IMG/VR virus record: IMGVR_UViG_3300050821_014614 | Length of the DNA: 64,000 nucleotides | Reading direction: 5' to 3' (one strand) | Source of the DNA: a virus | Part shown: piece after piece, positions 144 to 13,610 of the stretch | How positions within the stretch are numbered: the stretch's first letter is position 1 | How the letters are laid out: every line of letters begins with the position of its first letter | Position numbers and translations under genes: made by a program | The notes under the pieces: model-generated | Told to the model about the DNA's origin: nothing | Database searches by the model: none | What the model saw: only the letters and a program-made list of their open reading frames with translations

Positions 144-734
144 TCAGTTCAGATGCGCTGAAAACGTCGTGAGGCAGTTCGCGCCATCGTATGTGAAGGA
201 AAGAAGATCGATTGCGCTCGCGGCATTGGTAAGGGTGACCGCGCCCGCACCTGCCGACGCCACTTTCCAGACGCAGCCGGTGCCGAGAATCAGGCCTTCA
301 CCTCCGGTCGCGTCTTGAGTGAGCTCCAGTTTGTAATCGCCGCCGGCGACGAGGCCTGTAAGGTTCAGCGTGCGGCTGCCGGAATGCGCGGTGAACGTCA
401 GCGAAGCCCTGGCATTCAAAACGCCTGCGATAGCCCATGTCACAGTTGCGGCATCGGTAAGAACCGCGAGCACGTTCGGCCCGAGCATGGCGGGAGTGAC
501 CGCGGCAACGCCCGGCGCGATCAGATTCCAGTCATGGGACAATCCGCACACATACACGTTGGCGCCGGGAACGCCGTCCGAGGCCGTCGCCATATGCCCG
601 TTGTGACAGCCGCCGGCGAAAGTGGAGAAGGGCCTGAGCGGCATCGGCGCCACCCACTCGGCTCCCGAGTTATCGACCTTTTGCTGCGCCAAACAGGAGA
701 CCGCGAGAGCGAGGATAAGCAATAGAATTTTCAT
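144..734 (-). CDS. exported protein of unknown function (Sec-type signal peptide)
   Basis: 196 aa; N-terminus MKILLLILALAVSCLAQQ; start overlaps stop of upstream ORF (ATGA). Confidence 0.6.
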   Translation of the reverse strand: MKILLLILALAVSCLAQQKVDNSGAEWVAPMPLRPFSTFAGGCHNGHMATASDGVPGANVYVCGLSHDWNLIAPGVAAVTPAMLGPNVLAVLTDAATVTWAIAGVLNARASLTFTAHSGSRTLNLTGLVAGGDYKLELTQDATGGEGLILGTGCVWKVASAGAGAVTLTNAASAIDLLSFTYDGANCLTTFSAHLN

Positions 735-2821: not shown

Positions 2822-3733
2822 CTAGGTGCTCTGGACGTCGACGGCGAAGTTCTGCCGCAACGGCGCGCAGCCGTAGAGAACGTCGACCGTGAACTGCTGA
2901 GCGAGCGTGTTCGGCTGATAGCTCATCGTGACGCGCATGCCGAAATTGCCCATCTCGGCATACTCGGCGATCGCGCCGGTGCCGGGAAGCGGCATCGGGA
3001 GACGGCGAACCACCAGGCCGATGGCATCACGGACGAAGGCCAGATTGTGATAGAGCGTCGAGACTTTCGTGATGTACTGCGAACGGAAGATGTCGAAGCT
3101 CGTTCCGCGTAGCACCATACCCTCAGCGATCGGGCTGGGCTGGCCATTGATGACATAGCCGGCCGTCTGCAGCTCGGTGTACCGCGGGATCTGGCGCAAC
3201 GCCGTATAGGGGTTGTCGCCCACGATCAGGATTTTGCGCTGGCCGCCGGGAATCTTGGCGTTGAAGAGCGCCTGCTCCGCGGCGTTCAGCACGGCTTCCG
3301 TGATGGCCGCTGAGCCGCCCACTGCTGCGTTGGCGGTGTAGAGCGAATACATTGCGAGCAGATCCGTTTCGATCTTCTCGGCAATCGCGATCACGGCCGG
3401 CTGCATATAGACTTTGAGCAGATCGGGCGTCGCCAGAATGCGCGTTACGTCCGGAATCTGGAACGTTGCTTCCATGTGCGTGTTCAGCACGATTTGCGCG
3501 TTGCCGAGTGCCGGGTTCTGTGTGGTGACGGTGCCGGCTTCAGCGATGTTGTTCGCTGTGAGCTTGGGCGAGATCGGCACATTGACCGTGTCGCCTGCGC
3601 TGGCGAGCGTGGGCTCGAAATCGCGGTTCACCAGGTTGCCCATGAGGAGATTACCGACGAGCGCCGGGAGGGCGTCGGCGGCGACGAGTTTGACGATGGC
3701 TTGCGCCACATTTGCTGACGTAATTGCTGGCAT
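2822..3733 (-). CDS. major capsid protein, P22-coat-like family
   Basis: 303 aa after the scaffold-like ORF; N-terminal pattern LVGNLLMGNLVNRDFEP..AGDTVNVPISP recalls P22-coat-type capsid proteins (from memory, not searched). Confidence 0.75.
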   Translation of the reverse strand: MPAITSANVAQAIVKLVAADALPALVGNLLMGNLVNRDFEPTLASAGDTVNVPISPKLTANNIAEAGTVTTQNPALGNAQIVLNTHMEATFQIPDVTRILATPDLLKVYMQPAVIAIAEKIETDLLAMYSLYTANAAVGGSAAITEAVLNAAEQALFNAKIPGGQRKILIVGDNPYTALRQIPRYTELQTAGYVINGQPSPIAEGMVLRGTSFDIFRSQYITKVSTLYHNLAFVRDAIGLVVRRLPMPLPGTGAIAEYAEMGNFGMRVTMSYQPNTLAQQFTVDVLYGCAPLRQNFAVDVQST

Positions 3734-3825
3734 GCTGATTCAGGCTCCTTTTGCCTTGTTGTGCTGCTGTGACACGCCTGGCTTAGGAGCCGTTGGCTGT
3801 GTTTTTGTTGACTGGAAAGGTGGGG

Positions 3826-4581: not shown

Positions 4582-6123
4582 TTAGCTCGAGTAGCCCGCG
4601 AGCGATTGCGAGAACAGCGCCTGCTGCGTTACCGCCGCGGCGGCCGCCAGATCGGAAATCGTCGGCGCGGCATCGATCTCGGCATCGATGGCGGCGTAAA
4701 CTGCCGGGTTCGCGTCCTGCAGCCCGATGCGCACGAGCTTTTTCTGTATTTCCTTTGCGAAGGTGTCGGACTGAACGTTCTCGGCCTGAATAGCGCTGAG
4801 GAATTCCACGTCCTCGGCTCCGCCCTTGTCGGCGAAATCGAACCCGCGAATGTCAGCCGCTATCTCTGCATAGCCGCGGATCGTCAGCACGTCATCGAGC
4901 ACGCCCTGCATATCGGTGCGGAGGTTGTCTCCAAAGCCTTCCTGCGCGTCCTTCGAAGGCGATTTATCCTGTTCCTTCGAAATGCCGGATTGCGCCGCGG
5001 GCGTTGCCCGCCCGCTTCGCGCCTGATCGATCAGATAGCAGGATCGATAGACGTCCTCGCGCAGTTCGTGTAAACGCTCACGATGCGTCTGCATGGCCTT
5101 GCCTTCCGGCTCAAGCCATTCGGCGCGCGTTTCCTTATCGGGAAAGTGCAGCCACGAGACCTCGCTCATCGTCGGCGTGTCGTCGTAGGGTCCGAAAATC
5201 GCCAGCATGGCGAGGGCGGACTGGAAGATCTGCCAGTCGAGCGCGTTCTCCATATTCAGGTGCTTCAGCAGCGGCAGCATGACGCGATCGCCGAACCACA
5301 TGCCCTCCGGCGCATCGCAGCGCCGCAATGGCACGCGCTGGTGATCGCTCAGCGCGTGGCGCCGCGGATAGCCCGCGACGAGGGCCGCGTTCTCTTCTTT
5401 TGCTGCCGCGCCCGGGCCAGCCTCAAATAAAACTTCGTATGCTGCTACCTGATCGGGCGTGTAGATATACCAGCAAACACGCACCTGGGTTTCGCCCAGA
5501 AGGGCAGCCTCGAACGTTTGCACCTTCAATACCACCCAGATCACATTGCCGTAATCATCCGTTTTCCAGTTGAGAACGCAGGTCGGGTCATAAGTCAGAA
5601 TGACCGGATCGAGAGCGCCCGCAGCTTCCTGTTGTGCCAGCGATCCATACTGCGCGCCGGCGGAATCGGGAAGATCGATCAGCAGCCACGACCTGCCGAA
5701 AACGATCTGGTGCGCCAATACCTGCCGCCACTTATCGGCATAGGCGCCACCGTGGTGATCGCAGTCGAGCTCCCACTGGGCGATCCACGCAGCCGTGTCG
5801 GCGGGCACGGCATCCTGCGCCGCTTTGATGTCCGCGATTGCGCTGACCCGGGTCAGGATATCCGGCTCACGCGCGAACATCGACGAAACGTACCAGCCGG
5901 CGATATTGCCAAGCAGGTTCGAATAGTTGAAGTTCTCCTGGCGCGACGCGAAGACGTCGGCATGCTCTTTTACCCGACGCATGAGAACCTCGCCACAGTT
6001 CTCCTTCAAGACCGAACCGCCACCATAGAGCAGGCCCAGCTTTCGCCAGGCACCCTTGTAGAGGCTATATTCGGGGTGCTCGGCATCGAGCGCCTTAATC
6101 GGAACTGCAGCTGGAAAGTCCAT
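4582..6123 (-). CDS. portal protein
   Basis: 513 aa ORF between large terminase and scaffold genes; call based on position and size. Confidence 0.7.
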   Translation of the reverse strand: MDFPAAVPIKALDAEHPEYSLYKGAWRKLGLLYGGGSVLKENCGEVLMRRVKEHADVFASRQENFNYSNLLGNIAGWYVSSMFAREPDILTRVSAIADIKAAQDAVPADTAAWIAQWELDCDHHGGAYADKWRQVLAHQIVFGRSWLLIDLPDSAGAQYGSLAQQEAAGALDPVILTYDPTCVLNWKTDDYGNVIWVVLKVQTFEAALLGETQVRVCWYIYTPDQVAAYEVLFEAGPGAAAKEENAALVAGYPRRHALSDHQRVPLRRCDAPEGMWFGDRVMLPLLKHLNMENALDWQIFQSALAMLAIFGPYDDTPTMSEVSWLHFPDKETRAEWLEPEGKAMQTHRERLHELREDVYRSCYLIDQARSGRATPAAQSGISKEQDKSPSKDAQEGFGDNLRTDMQGVLDDVLTIRGYAEIAADIRGFDFADKGGAEDVEFLSAIQAENVQSDTFAKEIQKKLVRIGLQDANPAVYAAIDAEIDAAPTISDLAAAAAVTQQALFSQSLAGYSS

Positions 6124-6443
6124 CAGGCCTGGATGTAAGAAACGAGCAGCCCGTCCGCCGCGGTGTCGGCGTCGATGTAATAGTCGGCGGCATTCATCTG
6201 ATTGCCGTCCGGACCGTTAACTTTCAGCGGGTCGACGATGCCCGTCGCTGTGGGCTTAAGGAACGCCTTGATGACGCCGACACCGGTCGATTTCACGAGC
6301 GTCGACACGCCGAAGTACGTATTGCCGGCATTTCCGGGCACCGGCGAGATGATGAGGCCGTAACATGGCGTCGGCGTCGCTGTGACGCGCACCGGCGTGC
6401 CGGGAGTGACGCAGGCGATCTTGCCGAGAGGGACGATAATCAT
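6123..6443 (-). CDS. hypothetical protein
   Basis: 106 aa ORF between terminase and portal; 1-nt overlap with the portal start. Confidence 0.55.
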   Translation of the reverse strand: MIIVPLGKIACVTPGTPVRVTATPTPCYGLIISPVPGNAGNTYFGVSTLVKSTGVGVIKAFLKPTATGIVDPLKVNGPDGNQMNAADYYIDADTAADGLLVSYIQA

Positions 6444-6598
6444 TAGGCGTCGGCCTTCTTTTGCTCCGCCTCGTCTTCGGGCAGGACCGGCGCGATGCCG
6501 GCTATCAAACGTTTTGCAGTGGCGTGCGTGTGCGGGTCGACCGCGTGCTTCGCGGCCTCGTTCAGCAGAAACAGAATTGCCTCTTCGATTGGGTGCAT
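6443..6598 (-). CDS. small hypothetical protein (51 aa, below track threshold)
   Basis: ATG 6598 preceded by GAGGA; MHPIEEAILFLLNEAAKH...; TAATG overlap with the next ORF. Confidence 0.4.
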   Translation of the reverse strand: MHPIEEAILFLLNEAAKHAVDPHTHATAKRLIAGIAPVLPEDEAEQKKADA

Positions 6599-6621
6599 TT
6601 TGTTGTATCCTCTATAACCGG

Positions 6622-7971
6622 TTAAAGAAGTACTTCCGATTGCGGGCCGCCGCGCTGCCGGACCGGAAACTCGCGATGAATCAAATAGCCCAGCGCGTCA
6701 GAAACATGGGTACGGCGCGGATCGCGCTTGTCCATTGAGGCCGTCAGGTTGCCCGAAGCATCCGGCTTCCACGACACCTGTTCAAAATCGCGGACCAATT
6801 CCCTGCACTTCGGATCCACAAAAAGCCGTGCCTCGCCGAGCGAGTTGCACAGCATCGAATTGACGGCCGTAACGCGGTCTTTAACCGGCGGATCCGCCGA
6901 TGGGACCTTGAAATTAAAAACGAACCGACGGTCGTTGCGGAAGTACTCGCGAACTAATTCCCAGTCCGATGCGCCCGCGTGCGTGCGGGCATTGCCGGCG
7001 GCGTCGCCGTACACGTTCACGCGGATCTGGCCGCGTTGTTCCGCCCAGGGACCGGCCCGTCTCGCAAATTCCGCGCAGACCTCGCGAATGTTCGAATCCG
7101 GAAGGCAGATTTCGCCCAGCACCCGAACCGTGGCGCCGCGCCTGCCCATCAGCGCTTCCGCTCGTGTTCCCGATTCCTCGATCTGCACGATCAGGCTGCA
7201 CATCGGGTCGACGTTGAAATCGAGTGTCCAGCAAAGCTGGTTCGAATACAGGAAGCCCTGCGGCGCGATATTCAGCGCGCGATTGAACGCATAGTAGATG
7301 GCGCCCGTCGCCATGTTCTCGAAGCTGCCCTGATATTCCTGGCGGAAAGTCTTCTCGTCCAGATCCGCCGCGGAGGACTGGATTTCCTCGCGCGAGACAT
7401 TTCCACCGTCTTCCGTTGTGAACTGAAACGCCGCCCAATCGAGCTTCAGCCGGGCTTCCTGCCAGAGGTCGTAAAAGAACCCCATGCCCTTCGGCGTGCC
7501 GATAAACAGGGCCTTCCCCATCCGGTCCGAAAGCATTGGCCGGATAACCTCGGTCCACGCCTGGGGATGCATGTCCGCTACTTCGTCCATCACGACGAAA
7601 TCGAGGCCTTCGCCGCGGAGGTTGTCGTAGTTGTCCGCGCCGCGCAGTGCGATGACCGCGCCGCATTTCAGCTCGATCGATAAATCGGTTTCATTCGGAC
7701 GCCTGCGCCAATACGGCCGGGTGAGAGCCTTGAGCTGCTTCCACGCCACCCGTTTCGCCTGCTTATAGGTAGGCGCTACATACCAACAAACGCGTTCGGA
7801 AATCGGTGTCTGGCTGAAATCCGGATCTATGGCGGCCCGCAGAAGTGCCACGCACGCCAGAAACGTCTTGCCGAATCGCCTGCCTGCGACCAACACGATG
7901 AAACGCTTCAGGCAGCTGAAAACATCGCCTTGCGGCGGCCGGAGTCTGACTTCGACAGGGCCGCGTCTCAC
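6622..7971 (-). CDS. terL: terminase large subunit
   Basis: 449 aa; Walker A-like VAGRRFGKT and Walker B-like LDFVVMDEV; upstream of portal. Confidence 0.85.
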   Translation of the reverse strand: MRRGPVEVRLRPPQGDVFSCLKRFIVLVAGRRFGKTFLACVALLRAAIDPDFSQTPISERVCWYVAPTYKQAKRVAWKQLKALTRPYWRRRPNETDLSIELKCGAVIALRGADNYDNLRGEGLDFVVMDEVADMHPQAWTEVIRPMLSDRMGKALFIGTPKGMGFFYDLWQEARLKLDWAAFQFTTEDGGNVSREEIQSSAADLDEKTFRQEYQGSFENMATGAIYYAFNRALNIAPQGFLYSNQLCWTLDFNVDPMCSLIVQIEESGTRAEALMGRRGATVRVLGEICLPDSNIREVCAEFARRAGPWAEQRGQIRVNVYGDAAGNARTHAGASDWELVREYFRNDRRFVFNFKVPSADPPVKDRVTAVNSMLCNSLGEARLFVDPKCRELVRDFEQVSWKPDASGNLTASMDKRDPRRTHVSDALGYLIHREFPVRQRGGPQSEVLL

Positions 7972-7992
7972 TCATTGCAGCGGGCACGGACA

Positions 7993-8562
7993 TCAACGCT
8001 GCTGGATGGTGACGATGAATGGAGGCGGGTCTGCATTGTCGTCAGATTTATTGAGATCGCGCGTGCCGTAACGGTCAGGGAAGCGGCCCCGCTGGCGGAA
8101 CATCAGCAGAGCGTCCGATTTCTTCCAGACGCCGAGGATCTCGCCTCGCGCAAACTTGAGAATCGTCCTCCCCGTGATCGGATCAGTGGTGGTGAGCTGC
8201 AAGCCAGTCTCGGGATCCAGACACGGAATCTGTTCATACGAAAACTGACCCTGAAACACGAGTGGCTCGAAGACACCTTTGTATGCGCGGACCGAAACCT
8301 CGTCTTCGTAAGCGTCATCGCCTTCCGCCATCGCTTTGGCGAACCGGTCCGGATAACGGGGATCGGCGTCCATCCACTTGTAGTGCGACGTCCTGCCGAC
8401 TTTAGCCTCTTCGGCCGCCTGCTTGATACTGCCGGTGATGGCGATCGCGGCGAGAAAAGCGCGCTGCTTATTGCGCAGCGGGGATTTGAGCTTTCGTTTG
8501 CGCTTCGGCGCGGCCGCTGCGGGCGGCGTTTTCGCAGCTCGCTTTGTCGTTTTCGGTTTCAC
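7993..8562 (-). CDS. terS: terminase small subunit (HTH)
   Basis: HTH-like GSIKQAAEEAKVGRTSHYKWM directly upstream of TerL; start set to GTG 8562 (GTGA overlap with upstream stop); track ORF runs to 8664. Confidence 0.6.
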   Translation of the reverse strand: MKPKTTKRAAKTPPAAAAPKRKRKLKSPLRNKQRAFLAAIAITGSIKQAAEEAKVGRTSHYKWMDADPRYPDRFAKAMAEGDDAYEDEVSVRAYKGVFEPLVFQGQFSYEQIPCLDPETGLQLTTTDPITGRTILKFARGEILGVWKKSDALLMFRQRGRFPDRYGTRDLNKSDDNADPPPFIVTIQQR

Positions 8563-8825
8563 TGTGAAACAACTGACTTTTCGCGCAGATCGAACAGCGC
8601 CTTCGCTGCTTCGCGCGATGCCTTCCACTCCCGGTAATCGATTGAGCCCAGCGCCGGCCGGCATTCAGCCACGTCCCGCGCGGCTGCCGGGCAACCCGTA
8701 TACGCCAAAAGAAACGCCTGCCAGTGCCGGGTGAACGTTAGAGCGTGTTCCATTAGCGCCGCATCTGGCTCGGCTGCTATCGATACCGCGAACAGCAGCA
8801 CGCCGAGGAGCGCATATCGCTTCAC
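8559..8825 (-). CDS. exported small protein
   Basis: 88 aa; MKRYALLGVLLFAVSIAAE signal-like N-terminus; no lipobox Cys; next to lysis genes. Confidence 0.55.
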   Translation of the reverse strand: MKRYALLGVLLFAVSIAAEPDAALMEHALTFTRHWQAFLLAYTGCPAAARDVAECRPALGSIDYREWKASREAAKALFDLREKSVVSQ

Positions 8826-9010
8826 CCGATCTCCGGCATAGCTTGCACAATCAACTGCAGCCGCTGCTTCAGGAGCGCTTTAAGCGCCGCATTTTCGCGC
8901 GCCTGCTTCATCGCCTCGGCGTGCCACGCTTCCGCGGTGGCCTTCCAGGCCGCGGCGTCTTCGAGAAGTGCGGCCTTCTCTTCGAGGGATAGCTTCCACA
9001 TTTCAGCCAT
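8822..9010 (-). CDS. small coiled-coil protein
   Basis: Track ORF 8822-9112 trimmed to ATG 9010 (MAEMWKLSLEEKAALLED...); 8-nt overlap with the endolysin end. Confidence 0.45.
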   Translation of the reverse strand: MAEMWKLSLEEKAALLEDAAAWKATAEAWHAEAMKQARENAALKALLKQRLQLIVQAMPEIG

Positions 9011-9443
9011 CAAGACTCGGATCCCACGCGCACTGCTGGCCGTTCGGTCCGTAACACCAGCGCGCCTTCGCGGCTCTCGTGTCGACGTGGATATACCCGC
9101 CGTGCACAGCAACGCCGATCCCGCCCGCGGCGAACGCCGGTACCTGCAGCGCCTCCCTGTACATCCCGGCCGGCGTCATGCCCTGAATTTTGATATCGGC
9201 GGCCATCCCGAGCTCGTGCTCGGAGTCCGGAACACCGCCAACCTTTGCGTTATGCCCGCAGTGCCCTGGGGTCGGGGGTTGCCCAGGAAGCGGCAGCGGA
9301 CACCGGCACGCGCAGTCGACGGCGATCGAGACGCCAACAATTACACGCAGCGCCTCCAGCGAGTCCACAAGAACCTGATGGCAGCGGCAAAAGCCGCATC
9401 CGCGACAAGCCAGTTCGGCCTCGCTGAAGTGGGCAGAGTGCAT
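9003..9443 (-). CDS. endolysin, peptidase M15 (zinc D-Ala-D-Ala carboxypeptidase-like) family
   Basis: 146 aa; motifs HN..VGG...SEHELGMAADI and GGIGVAVHGGYIHVDTR typical of M15-type phage lysins. Confidence 0.8.
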   Translation of the reverse strand: MHSAHFSEAELACRGCGFCRCHQVLVDSLEALRVIVGVSIAVDCACRCPLPLPGQPPTPGHCGHNAKVGGVPDSEHELGMAADIKIQGMTPAGMYREALQVPAFAAGGIGVAVHGGYIHVDTRAAKARWCYGPNGQQCAWDPSLDG

Positions 9444-9445
9444 TT

Positions 9446-9745
9446 TTAGGGGACCAGCGGCGCAACGGGAGCGGCAGCGGCGGGCGCTGGCTTGAATGCC
9501 TTGATGAGCGCGGCGAACAGATTCACGAGAAGCGCGCAGCTGGCCACCGTGGGATTCGGGGAGTTTTCGAGTGCGCCGCTTCCTACCTCGATGCCGACGA
9601 GGACCTTATTCAGAAGAACGGACTGCTTGGTTGCACCCGACACGGGCGGCGCGATGGTTTCGATTGCCTGCACTCCCGCCAGAAGAGCGGGCGCGTAGGC
9701 AAGCGCCTCGGATGTGATTTGATTTGTAACTGCAAGTGTGGACAT
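9446..9745 (-). CDS. small hydrophobic protein, holin candidate
   Basis: 99 aa with 2-3 hydrophobic stretches, immediately upstream of the endolysin. Confidence 0.4.
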   Translation of the reverse strand: MSTLAVTNQITSEALAYAPALLAGVQAIETIAPPVSGATKQSVLLNKVLVGIEVGSGALENSPNPTVASCALLVNLFAALIKAFKPAPAAAAPVAPLVP

Positions 9746-9748
9746 AAG

Positions 9749-10501
9749 TCAGGTGAGGGCGATCAGCGCGAGCGCTTCCGGCATCTTCGCGATTCCAGGC
9801 CCGTACGATGCCGGAAGCGAATGCTCGAAATGCGCGTCGAGCGCCTGGCCGACGCTGATGGCGTTCAGCCATCCGTCAAAAACCGCCGTCATGCCAGCGT
9901 GGATGAACTGCGGACGGGGTGGACAATGCGTAACGATGTCCTTCGTATTGGAAACTCGCACCAGGGTGATCTTCGCGTCGCAATGCGTCTTCCACGCCAC
10001 ATCGCCGACCCGCGGGCTGGCGAACACGATGCAGGTGACGGGCAGGGAAGTCCCGCCCGCGATACTCGCGGCCGCAAGGGTTGCGGCGGCAGCGCCCAGC
10101 GAATGGCCGATTACGCAGAATTGCGTGCCAGCGCGCGTGTCCGCGATCGCGGAACGGATCGAAGGCAAGAGCGCTTCGAGCAGGCGCTGAAAACCGGCGT
10201 GTACTTTAAACCCGCCGACGTCCTCAAGTACCGATTCGAAATCGTCGATCCATTCGTCCGGCGTTTCCGTGCCGCGGATCGCGATATAAACCACGTTGCC
10301 CGCGGTGGCCACGAAACCGAAGTAGGGGTTGTCCGGCGAGATCTTGCCGAGAGGGCGGTCAAGTTGAATTGACCGGATTGAAGCGTAACCTGCGGGCAGC
10401 GCCGGCGTTTCGGAAACCACGGTATACGCCGCCTCGGCCAGCGGCAGCGCTACTTCAAGCAGGAACGCTTTGTCGATCAGCATTTGTAATCGCGAATCCA
10501 C
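9749..10501 (-). CDS. class 3 lipase-like alpha/beta hydrolase
   Basis: 250 aa; nucleophile elbow VIGHSLGAAAATLAA (GxSxG). Confidence 0.75.
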   Translation of the reverse strand: MDSRLQMLIDKAFLLEVALPLAEAAYTVVSETPALPAGYASIRSIQLDRPLGKISPDNPYFGFVATAGNVVYIAIRGTETPDEWIDDFESVLEDVGGFKVHAGFQRLLEALLPSIRSAIADTRAGTQFCVIGHSLGAAAATLAAASIAGGTSLPVTCIVFASPRVGDVAWKTHCDAKITLVRVSNTKDIVTHCPPRPQFIHAGMTAVFDGWLNAISVGQALDAHFEHSLPASYGPGIAKMPEALALIALT

Positions 10502-10932
10502 GCGCGGATCAAGAGCTGCAGCGGGCTGATGTGGAACGCCTCCGCCTCCGCCATCGCCTGCGCATTGGTCCAGTGATCCACGCTCATCCGGTACGCCGCG
10601 ATTACGGCGCCGGTTCGATCCTCACCGTGTTTGCAGTGCACGAAGCAAACGAAATCCGGATCCGCGATCAGATCGAAGATCTGAGCAATCTGCATTTCCA
10701 TCGGCGGCTCGACACCGAAAGTAAGCTCCGTCGCGCCGATGGCGATATTGTGATGCGCCATCCCGAGCGTCTCGCAGTCGATCGATTCGTCGGTGCGGCC
10801 GAAAGGCTCGCGAAGATCGATCACGGTCGTTACGCCTAGCGCCTTCAGCTCCGCGAACTGCGCGTCGGTGGGTTGCGCGCCACGATAGAGCTTGCCTGGA
10901 ACGACGACGCCGAAGTTGGTGATGGTGGTCAG
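10477..10932 (-). CDS. CX5R protein tyrosine/dual-specificity phosphatase-like protein
   Basis: P-loop VHCKHGEDRTG. No ATG/GTG/TTG close to the domain start, so start provisionally placed at CTG 10932 (CTGA overlap with upstream stop). Track ORF extends to 11328 across another coding frame. Confidence 0.7.
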   Translation of the reverse strand: MTTITNFGVVVPGKLYRGAQPTDAQFAELKALGVTTVIDLREPFGRTDESIDCETLGMAHHNIAIGATELTFGVEPPMEMQIAQIFDLIADPDFVCFVHCKHGEDRTGAVIAAYRMSVDHWTNAQAMAEAEAFHISPLQLLIRAWIRDYKC

Positions 10933-11294
10933 AACGGATGCCCCGCGGCGTAAACCCGCGCCGCCAGGATGACGACGACAGCTACAACCAACGCGGCCGT
11001 CTTCACCGTTAGATTGAAGCGCGCTTTCCGCGTTAGCTTCGCCGGCGGCGCGACCGTCACTGCAATCGCGGGCCCGATGGGGCCAGCCACGCCGGGCTGC
11101 CCCGCGGCGCCGCCGTCGATCTCGACCGGGAGCGATACCGTATTCGGTATAACCTGCGATGCTCCATCCGTCGCCGGGACCAGCAGCGGACTGTCCGCCG
11201 GAATCTGCATCAGGGTGCCAGTCGGCCCAATCGGATCGCCCTGCTGTGCGAAGGCGCAAACAGCGAGGAGCGCGAAGGTAAGAAGGAGTTTCAT
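10929..11294 (-). CDS. exported protein with C-terminal membrane anchor
   Basis: Track ORF trimmed to ATG 11294; MKLLLTFALLAVCAFAQQ signal peptide; C-terminal TAALVVAVVVILAARVYAA helix. Confidence 0.6.
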   Translation of the reverse strand: MKLLLTFALLAVCAFAQQGDPIGPTGTLMQIPADSPLLVPATDGASQVIPNTVSLPVEIDGGAAGQPGVAGPIGPAIAVTVAPPAKLTRKARFNLTVKTAALVVAVVVILAARVYAAGHPF

Positions 11295-11467
11295 TCTTTT
11301 CGGTCGCCAACAGACTCGCGGAGCGCAAGCGCTACATGGCCCACATCCCGCCAGGTCGCCCTGATCTCGGGCGGAAGGTTTTTCCACGACGGGTAAACGT
11401 TTTGATCGCCCAGCCGCGATCTCAGCCACGTACGGAAGAGCTGCTCCGCGAACGCATCGCTGGTCAC
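11291..11467 (-). CDS. small protein, paralog of ORF 12438-12692
   Basis: 58 aa from GTG 11467 (GTGA overlap with sigma stop); shares an F.E.L...SR...P.W..P..RA.WR...AL.L pattern with the 84-aa ORF. Confidence 0.5.
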   Translation of the reverse strand: MTSDAFAEQLFRTWLRSRLGDQNVYPSWKNLPPEIRATWRDVGHVALALRESVGDRKE

Positions 11468-11994
11468 GCGGCAGCCCGCATAACCCTGAGCGCTCTGGCC
11501 TCGATCTGGCTTGCGCGGCATTCACTTACGCCAAAGGAGAGTCCGACTGCCTTCAACGTTTCTCCGCGCATGCGCCGGCGAACCAGTTCGCAATCGCGAT
11601 CCTTGAGGCCGCCCATGAGAGTCTCGACATCGAGCGCGGCTTCCATCGCGGGCCATGGATCCACGGCGGGGCCTTTGTTCACGCGAAGCTCGAGGTCTCC
11701 ATTTTTACGTCTGTACCCGGCATCGATAGATACCATCGCCCCATAGGCGAATCCCACACGGCGGTTACCGGTTTCCTGCCTGAGGGCATCCAGCGCCGCG
11801 AATCTCATTCGGCTGTGGACCCGGGCCTCTTCCGAACCCAGACCGTTCCAACTTCGAAAAGCGGGTATAGAGGCCATCAGAGCCTCCTGTTTCAGATCGT
11901 CGACAGGAATTCTGAAGCCCGTGATGCGGGAGATCCGCCAGGCAATACTTTGTGCGCGGCCCGCGTACTTCGCGACAATCTCGTCATCCGTCAT
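11464..11994 (-). CDS. sigma-70 family sigma factor (small, ECF/group-4-like)
   Basis: 176 aa; region-2-like DDLKQEALMASIPAFRSW and region-4.2-like LSFGVSECRASQIEARALRVMR. Confidence 0.75.
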   Translation of the reverse strand: MTDDEIVAKYAGRAQSIAWRISRITGFRIPVDDLKQEALMASIPAFRSWNGLGSEEARVHSRMRFAALDALRQETGNRRVGFAYGAMVSIDAGYRRKNGDLELRVNKGPAVDPWPAMEAALDVETLMGGLKDRDCELVRRRMRGETLKAVGLSFGVSECRASQIEARALRVMRAAA

Positions 11995-11997
11995 AAC

Positions 11998-12441
11998 TCA
12001 TTTAGTGAGCTGGTGGATATTACTGCCGACCGCGATGCCGAGCGGAACGGCTAACCCCGCGTTAACCACTGTGATCGTGAAAACATAGTTGGGCGTGCTC
12101 TTGCCGAGCCACACCGGAATCCACTCAGCCAGGCCGGCCGCAGCCACCGCGATCTTTACCCCGGTGAATCGCGGCACATCGATCTGGCATGGCGCCGAGA
12201 TAAGCAGCGGGTTCAGCTCACACCCGCCGGTGCCCGGGAACGCGCCCCGTCTGGTGGTGGCATAATCGCCGACGTTAATCATCTGCAGGATCGTGTCTGT
12301 GATCAGCATCCCGTCGAGAGACTTACGACTCGAATGGAAGCTGGCCACCGGATGTACAACCCACTTCAGCGGCATCGACACCGTGAGCGATGCGGCGTGG
12401 GCAGACAGCGCCAGGAAGGCGATAAGGAGTAGCATTTTCAT
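11998..12441 (-). CDS. exported/membrane protein
   Basis: Trimmed to ATG 12441; MKMLLLIAFLALSAHA signal peptide; two C-terminal hydrophobic helices. Confidence 0.6.
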   Translation of the reverse strand: MKMLLLIAFLALSAHAASLTVSMPLKWVVHPVASFHSSRKSLDGMLITDTILQMINVGDYATTRRGAFPGTGGCELNPLLISAPCQIDVPRFTGVKIAVAAAGLAEWIPVWLGKSTPNYVFTITVVNAGLAVPLGIAVGSNIHQLTK

Positions 12442-12692
12442 GGCTGGTGATACATCGCATTCGGGCCGACAGGCGCCCGGAGATATGCAGTCCGGACCTG
12501 CGGCGCCAATCTCAGCGCGGTCTCCGCGGCGGATCGCCACGCGGCTCTGACGCACGGCGACATGTCTTCAAATAGCGGGTTGACGTCGACTCCGGACTCC
12601 GGCGGGAAGCGCGATGCAAAGAACGCGGTATAGAGAAATTCGGTGAAGTCGGAAAGGCTGAGGCCTTCGGGCTTCGGAACGGGAACGGTCAC
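12438..12692 (-). CDS. small protein, paralog of ORF 11291-11467
   Basis: 84 aa from GTG 12692 (GTGA overlap); ATGA overlap with the next ORF. Confidence 0.5.
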   Translation of the reverse strand: MTVPVPKPEGLSLSDFTEFLYTAFFASRFPPESGVDVNPLFEDMSPCVRAAWRSAAETALRLAPQVRTAYLRAPVGPNAMYHQP

Positions 12693-12760
12693 GCGCGCGG
12701 CCTCCAGTGGAGGGCGAGTATCAGGGCCGAGAGGATCAGCACGGTGACGAGTTCTTTCAT
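12689..12760 (-). CDS. 23-aa hydrophobic micro-ORF
   Basis: MKELVTVLILSALILALHWRPRA; ATGA overlap upstream and GTGA overlap downstream. Confidence 0.3.
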   Translation of the reverse strand: MKELVTVLILSALILALHWRPRA

Positions 12761-12930
12761 TTGTGCAGCCCGTCGCGGCCCGTGGCGCCTGTCGCACCCA
12801 CGGCACCGGTGGCTCCTGTCGTTTTCGCCGCCTTCGCTTCGAGCTTCCGGACCCGGTGTTCGAGGACCGCACCGCAGAGCAGAAGCGCCATCACCGCGAC
12901 GCACAGCACCACCGTCATCGGGTCTGTCAT
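12757..12930 (-). CDS. 57-aa membrane micro-protein with short collagen-like tail (below track threshold)
   Basis: MTDPMTVVLCVAVMALLLCGAVLEHRVRKLEAKAAKTTGATGAVGATGATGRDGLHK; ATGA overlaps at both ends. Confidence 0.45.
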   Translation of the reverse strand: MTDPMTVVLCVAVMALLLCGAVLEHRVRKLEAKAAKTTGATGAVGATGATGRDGLHK

Positions 12931-13541
12931 TTCTTCGCCTTTGGCGCGTCCGCTTTCTTCACGTCCGCCGCTTCGATCTCAACCGGAGTATCGCGGCCGA
13001 ACATGGGCAACATTAAAGTGAGGAGCGTGCCGCCTTTGATTCGGGCGATCACGGCGGAGCGCCCCGCGAACGATCCGGATTTCACCGTGACCGAAGCACC
13101 TACCACATAAGGGCAGCATGCGTCGGGAACGGTTGACTCGATCACTTGTCGCAGGTCCGCGATTTCGCAATCAGGAATCGAAACGGGAATCTGGTCGATA
13201 CTCAAAATCGTTACAACGCCGCGCGCCCGGCTGATCGATGGCGCATCGGCCGGATCGAACCGCGCAAAGATATAGCCCGGGAACAAGGGCCGCGTCGTGA
13301 CCTTCTCACGATCGCTCCACTTCACGCGTTCATCCCAGGTCGGGAGAAATTCCTCGACGCCTTCGCCGCGGAGCTGGTCACGAACCGAAAATTCGAAACG
13401 CGATCTGGTCTGGATAGCGAACCAGGAAGGTGAAGCCGCTACGCGGGCGTCCGGGGAGAACGCAGACCTCTGCAGCGCGGGCGAAACGACGGGAATCTGA
13501 TGCACTACGTGCCCTTGAGTCCCGGATTCCACCTGGTGCAT
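12927..13541 (-). CDS. NusG/RfaH-family transcription antiterminator paralog (NGN + KOW)
   Basis: WFAIQTRSRFEFSVRDQLRGEGVEEFLPTW...PLFPGYIFARF (NGN-like) and GASVTVKSGSFAGRSAVIARIKG (KOW-like); start set to ATG 13541, the track TTG 13598 lies inside the promoter-like motif. Confidence 0.8.
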   Translation of the reverse strand: MHQVESGTQGHVVHQIPVVSPALQRSAFSPDARVAASPSWFAIQTRSRFEFSVRDQLRGEGVEEFLPTWDERVKWSDREKVTTRPLFPGYIFARFDPADAPSISRARGVVTILSIDQIPVSIPDCEIADLRQVIESTVPDACCPYVVGASVTVKSGSFAGRSAVIARIKGGTLLTLMLPMFGRDTPVEIEAADVKKADAPKAKK

Positions 13542-13570
13542 TTGAAGTTGCGTAACGGCCTCACGAGCCC

Positions 13571-13610
13571 TATCGGCGCGCGCCGGAAAAACGTGCAAAC
13601 GCGAATTTAG
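13571..13610 (-). promoter_or_regulatory. conserved motif copy A (TTGCAC-17 nt-CGATAG), promoter-like
   Basis: Minus-strand reading CTAAATTCGCGTTTGCACGTTTTTCCGGCGCGCGCCGATA; similar to copies at 14007-14050 and 50401-50444. Confidence 0.55.

Follow-up and report, generated by a model that had tools for sequence, protein, structure and literature searches.

Mycobacteriophages such as D29 encode LysB, a leaderless lipolytic enzyme that serves as a third lysis enzyme beside the endolysin and is dispensable in some relatives (PMC6116114). About 15% of the phages that infect Gram-negative hosts have no spanins and disrupt the outer membrane with a different agent; the disruptin of phage phiKT (gp28), found in such a spanin-less phage, is a small cationic amphipathic peptide (bioRxiv 10.1101/515445). 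LysZ, from corynephages and mycobacteriophages, is an extra cassette membrane protein for an additional envelope barrier (bioRxiv 10.1101/2025.06.24.661397). Here, we analyse a minus-strand gene cluster in a 64,000-nucleotide stretch of viral DNA (IMG/VR record IMGVR_UViG_3300050821_014614; the whole stretch is called the window below), in which genes for a class-3 lipase and a Cys-based phosphatase lie beside those for a holin-like protein and an endolysin. Phage lysis cassettes with an accessory lipolytic enzyme are a known kind of arrangement. What is new is a class-3 lipase resembling phospholipase A1 (PLA1), its conserved bitopic Pro-rich partner and the presumed diderm host with a spanin-less phage, together with an optional leaderless phosphatase of the PFA-DSP/TpbA type and a recurring CUGA start. 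To our knowledge, disruptin is the only other characterised outer-membrane solution of spanin-less phages.

The cluster is a lysis module in the late operon of an uncultivated tailed phage. A model that saw only the letters and their open reading frames (ORFs), below called the sequence-only reading, had proposed the minus-strand order membrane-anchored exported protein (here, the anchor), phosphatase, lipase, holin-like protein, M15 endolysin, 62-amino-acid (aa) protein, 88-aa protein and TerS. All of these ORFs are present where it placed them (Table 1), and profile searches assigned the lipase, phosphatase and endolysin to the domain families it had named, with matches above gathering scores.

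The lipase matches Lipase_3 (PF01764) with 86.3 bits (cutoff 22, E 2.3e-24) and phrog_21992 'esterase/lipase' (4e-17). Alignment bears out two members of the catalytic triad: Ser128 (in GHSLG) and Asp182 do not vary among 42 homologues, and a profile alignment matches them to GHSLG and NERDIVPH of Rhizomucor miehei lipase. The third member is probably H221 (EHSLxxSY), judging by its conservation in the 42-homologue alignment (at least 90%), although the hidden Markov model (HMM) alignments end before this residue. The AlphaFold2 (AF2) model, with a predicted local distance difference test (pLDDT) score of 93.6, shows the alpha/beta-hydrolase lipase fold and has plant PLA1 and fungal lipases as its best Foldseek matches (E 1e-12 to 1e-10, TMq up to 0.75). 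Hydropathy reveals no hydrophobic N-terminus, and the cellular homologues are mostly leaderless too (3/109 with a signal-peptide-like N-terminus, by a heuristic). The start is most likely ATG 10483, which overlaps the phosphatase stop in ATGCTGA, rather than GTG 10501. In the distant relative L016 (1768-2646), 45 open codons precede the conserved MIVDK start of the lipase ORF, running from a GTG that lies 4 nt past the anchor stop. This N-terminal extension is strongly hydrophobic (ILFAACLTLIDAIAISTLAFIAIALAMV), and a membrane-tethered long isoform is possible there.

The lipase recurs at about nine distinct metagenomic phage loci, related and more distant, always within a few genes of lysis-type genes. 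It lies 0-3 genes from a putative holin, anchor or endolysin in the window, L001, L002, L003, the P0123 locus, L013/L014, L015, L016, L018 and L019. At eight of the roughly nine loci an endolysin is nearby, either M15, T4-lysozyme-like/GH24 or a weakly supported 110-aa type. Among the close relatives, L001 has the gene order of the window with a T4-lysozyme-like protein at the position of the M15 endolysin, and this swap identifies the slot as a lysis cassette. L003 and the P0123 locus read anchor, lipase, 80-aa hydrophobic protein, M15 endolysin and 62-aa protein; L002 reads 194-aa exported protein, 70-aa protein with signal peptide and cationic tail, DUF6527, lipase, holin-like protein, M15 endolysin and a 74-aa version of the 62-aa protein. 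L005 (169-aa protein, 72-aa protein with signal peptide and cationic tail, phosphatase, holin-like protein, M15 endolysin, 62-aa protein) is without the lipase, and both L011 (small proteins, Big_2, M15 endolysin, 63-aa version) and L012 (241-aa transmembrane (TM) protein, 126-aa protein, M15 endolysin, 62-aa protein) are without lipase and phosphatase.

In five more distant phages, the lipase is 51-57% identical. The order is GH24 lysozyme, anchor-type protein, DUF6527, lipase and, further on, terminase in L013/L014; sigma factor, GH24 lysozyme, anchor-type protein, lipase, methyltransferase and terminase in L016; sigma factor, 110-aa protein, anchor-type protein and lipase in L018; 111-aa protein, lipase, 81-aa protein and TerS in L015; and lipase followed by a small holin-like protein in L019. 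The 110-111-aa protein is a weakly supported endolysin (phrog_873 'endolysin' 3e-5, Gp29 N-terminus 0.006). Across the relatives, a small one-TM protein, an endolysin and the 62-aa helical protein form a conserved core, and the anchor and leaderless lipase form a second unit, which recurs beside at least two recognisable endolysin families (and the weak third type) in two gene orders. The 62-aa protein marks a very small clade, with 8 clusters among 5.8 billion proteins.

The explanation we favour, with somewhat less than even confidence, is an accessory, holin-dependent lipolytic lysis module that follows the logic of LysB with an unrelated sequence and makes its phosphatase by CUG reinitiation; we deduce this function from context only. 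The lipase and, in phages that have it, the phosphatase would accumulate in the cytoplasm as the endolysin does, and we liken this wait to that of canonical endolysins, themselves leaderless forms of exported enzymes. Both would reach the envelope only once the holin had permeabilised the inner membrane. There, the lipase would hydrolyse acyl esters of envelope lipids, helping to break the outer membrane in a spanin-less phage. Ribosomes ending at the anchor UGA would reinitiate at the overlapping CUG (or a nearby AUC), giving a low, coupled level of phosphatase. The host is probably a diderm bacterium of the Acidobacteriota (Bryobacteraceae or Terriglobia-like) living in soil. We know of almost no phage biology for the Acidobacteriota.

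Like LysB, the window lipase is leaderless, of the serine-lipase type, encoded in a cassette beside a holin-like gene and an endolysin gene, and absent in some relatives; the presumed target of both is the outer lipid layer, once holin and endolysin have acted. A sequence relationship is not detectable, as a tblastn search of 50,697 GenBank phage records with the lipase gave no matches at E 1e-3, and the window protein has a class-3 lipase/PLA1-like fold. The presumed host also differs, having a lipopolysaccharide (LPS) outer membrane and no mycolyl-arabinogalactan ester. Disruptin is a peptide and not an enzyme, and the window has no such gene. LysZ is comparable in that its cassettes also hold more than holin and endolysin, but it serves another host envelope and is not an enzyme pair, and no homology is expected. 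For the breach of the outer membrane by spanin-less phages of diderms, the clade offers a concrete and testable enzymatic candidate.

The suggestion of the sequence-only reading that the lipase is a LysB-style outer-membrane step gains support from this context, as the gene travels with different endolysin families in divergent phages. It does not hold as an obligatory step: three relatives with the same holin-like/M15/62-aa core (L005, L011 and L012) lack the lipase, which must be dispensable or replaceable. This absence weighs against a role in lysis, and so do several other points. Export signals are missing from both enzymes, class-3 lipases have not been linked to phage lysis by any experiment or family annotation, and our literature searches returned no report of a lipase in the lysis cassette of a Gram-negative phage. 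The 'holin' label comes from size, one hydrophobic segment and position. The host assignment comes from a binned 4.9-kb contig (L016, in a Bryobacteraceae metagenome-assembled genome, or MAG) and the best cellular matches, and scans of genome contigs with the lipase alignment and with the endolysin alignment found no prophages and thus no direct host. CUG is a very weak bacterial initiator. Finally, the region also takes up unrelated cargo, including DUF6527, Big_2, methyltransferases and toxin-antitoxin pairs.

This last point leads to the strongest alternative, which we consider possible though clearly less probable: that the lipase and phosphatase have nothing to do with lysis and are accessory cargo (for host takeover, signalling or exopolysaccharide (EPS) control, counter-defence or conversion), lodged in a recombination hot spot between regulatory and lysis/packaging genes and co-expressed late. 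Their patchy presence would fit, with the lipase alone in L002 and L003, the phosphatase alone in L005, both in the window and L001, and neither in L011 and L012. So would the ParB-methyltransferase and HicAB/BrnT genes that share the neighbourhood with DUF6527 and Big_2, and the leaderless state of both enzymes and of the cellular lipase homologues. The nearest solved phosphatases (TpbA and Siw14/PFA-DSP) work in signalling or metabolite turnover. Random cargo, however, would not be expected to stay linked to the anchor and endolysin while endolysin family and gene order change, as the lipase does. Separate promoter or terminator signals are also absent, a scan for them having returned signals at chance level, and there is no intergenic space.

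The earlier statement that the cassette has no recognisable spanin pair stands within the hydropathy and lipobox heuristics and the family searches that we applied. A six-frame scan of the window (ORFs of at least 30 aa with ATG/GTG/TTG starts) found no canonical lipobox ORFs, including at 8.5-11.5 kb; the sole weak candidate, a 196-aa protein at 144..734, is distant from the cassette. No matches to spanin or holin families were found in PHROG, Pfam or NCBIfam, and the cassette shows neither an i-spanin with an N-terminal TM segment nor an o-spanin with a lipobox. The small ORFs after the endolysin likewise lack the expected lipobox Cys and TM arrangement, as the earlier reading had it. The 62-aa protein, which directly follows the endolysin in all relatives examined, has no TM segment (maximum Kyte-Doolittle hydropathy, KD, 0.65). 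The 88-aa protein has a signal-peptidase-I-type leader (SIA/AE, the slash marking the cleavage site), two Cys and no lipobox; it was not seen in relatives, which carry different genes at its position. Neither of these two small proteins matched any family in PHROG, Pfam or NCBIfam.

The anchor has a signal-peptide-like N-terminus (AFA/QQ), a Pro-rich low-complexity middle, a basic juxtamembrane stretch, and a C-terminal TM segment (mean KD 2.3) with a conserved tail (RVYAAGHPF). The same architecture adjoins the lipase or endolysin in L001, L003, L013, L016 and L018, and no family match was found in PHROG, Pfam or NCBIfam. The anchor could itself be the third-step or membrane component, either a lipid-free u-spanin analogue or the actual holin, with the lipase as its partner or modulator; we regard this as unlikely. 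Spanins (lambda Rz/Rz1, T1 gp11) fill the slot that we propose for the window lipase, the third lysis step in a diderm host, and the anchor shares the u-spanin topology, with an exported N-terminus, a C-terminal TM segment and a Pro-rich spacer of about 70 residues that we infer to be long enough for the periplasm. In L013, L016 and L018 the anchor comes right after the endolysin, and no further small membrane protein has been called in the vicinity. It is present at 5/7 distinct lipase loci that could be read upstream (with it: the window, L001, L003, L013, L016, L018; without it: L002, L015, L019) and in none of the three relatives lacking the lipase. Against such a role, the cassette has no lipobox lipoprotein, the N-terminal Cys of the window anchor ('AVC') is missing in L001, L003, L016 and L018, and all versions have a signal-peptidase-I-type site (AxA/Q). 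As this Cys is not conserved, we rejected the anchor as a lipoprotein or u-spanin. Its periplasmic part is also of low complexity and poorly conserved, and the window clade has a separate holin-like gene besides.

A bolder extension of the favoured explanation, which we think improbable, is that the lipase and phosphatase together deacylate and dephosphorylate outer-membrane lipids or LPS, instead of spanins, in a small phage clade of probable Acidobacteriota. After holin release of both enzymes, acyl anchors and phosphate/divalent-cation cross-bridges would be removed; the Pro-rich, inner-membrane-anchored protein would be the envelope-spanning partner, and the conserved CUG would set a low dose of phosphatase.

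From its sequence, the phosphatase is best described as a leaderless relative of the mostly exported bacterial PFA-DSP/TpbA-like enzymes. It matches the Pfam families PTP-NADK (49.7 bits) and Y_phosphatase2 (49.8 bits; cutoff 27), as well as Y_phosphatase3, at E of about 4e-13. The P-loop HCxxGxxR is invariant, with H99, C100 and R106 unchanged across 42 homologues. The best PDB sequence matches are Pseudomonas aeruginosa TpbA and Arabidopsis PFA-DSP1 (AtPFA-DSP1), at E of about 2e-5, and the AF2 model (pLDDT 96.6) resembles Siw14 (TM-score 0.82), PFA-DSP1 (0.78), TpbA (0.77) and DUSP23 in Foldseek (range 0.76-0.82). The HCxxGxxRTG P-loop is common to the window protein, TpbA and Siw14/PFA-DSP1, with identity at only about 20%. 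The phage form has no leader, unlike TpbA and most bacterial homologues, which are exported. Its domain starts 5 residues after the CTG, and a heuristic found signal-peptide-like N-termini in 0/13 close, apparently phage-type phosphatases vs 88/107 more distant homologues. The latter belong, where named, to Terriglobia, Bryobacteraceae and Verrucomicrobiae and mostly have signal peptides or lipoboxes. On every contig inspected (window, L001, L005, L006, L008), the close leaderless phosphatases sit in phage-like gene contexts. The gene occurs only in some members of the clade, in L005 without the lipase, and is an intact, selected and optional insert rather than a fixed cassette member.

As the sequence-only reading had observed, the phosphatase frame lacks a nearby canonical start: no ATG, GTG or TTG occurs between TTG 11328 and an internal GTG at 10824, and a CTG at 10932..10930 overlaps the anchor stop TGA at 10931..10929. 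Its idea that this CTG is the start has been strengthened by the relatives' ATG or GTG at the same codon, by purifying selection and by the core strands of a confident protein tyrosine phosphatase (PTP) fold. Thirteen close homologues (153-188 aa) begin M-x-x-x-NFG, with the start 3-6 residues before NFG; at this position the window reads CTG-ACC-ACC-ATC-ACC-AAC-TTC-GGC. The codon aligned to the CTG is GTG in a GTGA overlap in L005 (phosphatase 80% identical), ATG in an ATGA overlap in L008 and ATG overlapping TAA in L006. The L001 phosphatase is only 53% identical, yet it has the same TTCTGACCACCATC junction and also lacks a canonical start. Over the 36 codons from the CTG to the internal GTG, the ratio of nonsynonymous to synonymous differences (pN/pS) is 0.33, 0.32 and 0.25 against L001, L005 and L008, vs 0.58, 0.21 and 0.39 for the rest of the gene. 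In the model, this N-terminal segment forms strands 8-11 and 15-18, helix 23-31 and strand 36-39 (beta1, beta2, alpha1, beta3). Since the segment is under purifying selection and contributes core elements of the model, it is presumably translated, and a 115-aa product would not fold.

The same junction is found without a phosphatase. In L003, the lipase comes right after the anchor, begins at a CTG in this junction (..GCGGGGCACGCGTTCTGATCATCGATAAG..) and has its first canonical start 10 codons inside. In L018, the homologous anchor ends in ..GHQ and its stop, and the lipase has an ordinary ATG in an ATGA overlap. The anchor-CTGA junction thus precedes a phosphatase at two loci (the window and L001) and a lipase in L003. 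The simplest reading of these alignments is termination-reinitiation coupling at the CUGA overlap, with CUG or the nearby AUC as the probable initiator. The loci provide three comparative cases (two phosphatases, one lipase) of intact genes that apparently depend on a CUG in a CUGA overlap. IMG/VR scans that used the phosphatase, an alignment of the holin-like protein and the DNA pattern of the junction returned only contigs already known, and scans of metagenome contigs with the 62-aa alignment and a degenerate junction pattern found none.

The public Joint Genome Institute (JGI) call for this gene, P0002, begins at the internal GTG (10822-10824, minus strand) and gives a 115-aa fragment that lacks the first four secondary-structure elements. 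This truncation is an annotation artefact of the CTG start, and standard gene callers truncate or mis-start the three genes with such a start. Two other starts were considered and rejected: a 283-aa ORF from TTG 11328 overlaps the whole anchor gene in another frame, and a start at the internal GTG would, according to the model, delete the core of the phosphatase fold.

We find it very unlikely that programmed -1 frameshifting near the anchor 3' end instead joins the phosphatase (or the lipase in L003) to the C-terminus of the anchor, so that the enzyme would be tethered to the inner membrane. Relative to the anchor, the downstream frame is -1, and it is open upstream of the CTG for 399 nt in the window and 393 nt in L003, the 33-nt junction is strongly conserved, and the TM-like N-terminal extension of the L016 lipase ORF suggests that membrane tethering can occur. 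In L001, however, the -1 frame is open for 75 nt and then closed. A cat to cac change is synonymous in the anchor frame and not in the -1 frame, and relatives use an ordinary ATG or GTG at the same codon. No X_XXY_YYZ heptamer occurs in the anchor's frame (a G_GGU_UUA is phased for the wrong frame), and 3' of the junction the phosphatase and lipase versions have unrelated sequences, leaving no conserved 3' stimulator. Without an in-phase slippery site or downstream conservation between junction types, programmed -1 or +1 frameshifting at the stop was rejected. We give almost no credence to a decaying, untranslated remnant, or to a phosphatase made solely as the 115-aa product, despite the missing canonical start and the JGI call, as the frame has no stop or frameshift, all invariant family residues are kept, the model has high confidence along its whole length, pN/pS stays well below 1 on both sides of the internal GTG, the CTG junction persists in L001 at such low phosphatase identity, and the short product would lose four core elements of the predicted fold.

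Table 1. Features of the lysis module and its flanks in window coordinates, listed from upstream to downstream; the gene rows from the sigma factor to TerS give the gene order of the window.
Feature	Position	Strand	Basis and remarks
Sigma-70-like factor	11467..11994	-	Sigma70_r4 (E 6e-7), TIGR02937 (2e-7); upstream context; stop overlaps start of next gene (GTGA)
Conserved 58-aa protein	11294..11467	-	GTG start in GTGA overlap; stop overlaps anchor ATG (ATGA)
Anchor, 121 aa, bitopic	10929..11294	-	Hydropathy; architecture recurring in relatives
Anchor/phosphatase junction	10929..10961	-	GCGCGGGTTTACG..GCGGGGCA..CGTTCTGA; ends in CTGA start/stop overlap
Cys-based phosphatase, leaderless, 151 aa if read from CTG 10932	10477..10932	-	Pfam profiles; P-loop VHCKHGEDRTG
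Class-3 lipase, leaderless, 244 aa	9749..10483	-	Lipase_3; GHSLG
Holin-like protein, 99 aa	9446..9745	-	Single hydrophobic segment; position
Peptidase M15 endolysin, 146 aa, no signal sequence	9003..9443	-	Peptidase_M15_3, phrog_894
62-aa helical protein	8822..9010	-	ATG overlaps endolysin stop; conserved
88-aa exported protein	8559..8825	-	Signal-peptide-like N-terminus
TerS (small terminase subunit)	7993..8562	-	phrog_4044 (1e-17); GTG 8562 in GTGA overlap; downstream end of module
TerL	7971..6622	-	Terminase_6N (1e-14); next after TerS

The holin-like protein has one hydrophobic segment (residues 65-85, KD 1.91) and an Ala/Pro-rich tail, and had no match in Pfam, PHROG or NCBIfam. It lies directly upstream of the endolysin in L001, L002 and L005, and other small hydrophobic proteins are found instead in L003 and L012. 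The endolysin matches Peptidase_M15_3 (31.1 bits, cutoff 23.2) and phrog_894 'endolysin' (2e-18), and the motifs SEHxxGxAAD and YIHVD are conserved in the alignment with its relatives. The window version also has a 13-aa Pro-rich insertion (PLPLPGQPPTPGH) relative to these, and has DCACRC at the position of DDAYRC in five relatives.

From the sigma factor to TerS (11994 to 7993, minus strand), the genes are tightly packed head to tail. Start and stop codons overlap at 6/9 junctions (GTGA, ATGA, CTGA, ATGCTGA, ATGGCTGA and GTGA), and none of the 14 minus-strand gene starts in 6123-13598 is preceded by a Shine-Dalgarno (SD)-like motif. This absence, together with the frequent overlaps, suggests that the whole late operon is translated in an SD-independent, coupling-dependent manner. 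Beyond TerS and TerL lie genes for a portal-like protein and a P22-type coat protein. The sigma-70-like factor and a NusG-like protein (12927-13598, minus strand) are encoded just upstream of the lysis genes, and this position is kept in relatives. Homologues of the 58-aa protein, which has no family match in PHROG, Pfam or NCBIfam, appear as small ORFs upstream of the cassette in L001, L002, L005, L013, L015, L016 and L018. A blastn search with 7.5 kb against GenBank phages gave only a weak match to TerL.

Several other features of the relatives' cassettes deserve mention. In L002 (5499-5711) and L005 (5786-6004), the place of the anchor is taken by a protein of 70-72 aa that has a signal peptide and a strongly cationic, amphipathic tail (..AAKVAKRIGAKAAKKIAKRT); its likeness to disruptin is confined to composition. 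A gene of the DUF6527 zinc-ribbon-like kind (PF20137, with the label BubE in a precomputed table) lies between anchor and lipase in L013 (1288-1584) and just upstream of the lipase in L002 (5708-6004). In L008 (5349-5932), beyond the 3' end of the phosphatase gene, two ORF fragments split by an assembly gap have M15/VanY-like-looking motifs (ATYRPPE.., ..HTRRLAIDM.., ..GPHWS); Pfam gave no matches, and these unconfirmed fragments were not used. Some relatives also carry an Acb2/Tad1-hairpin gene (anti-CBASS/Thoeris-type) right after TerL, and HicAB or BrnT/CopG toxin-antitoxin pairs beside the cassette (coordinates of these side genes: L011 10385-10768, L001 ~3100-3741, L012 3254-3879 and L011 1044-1588).

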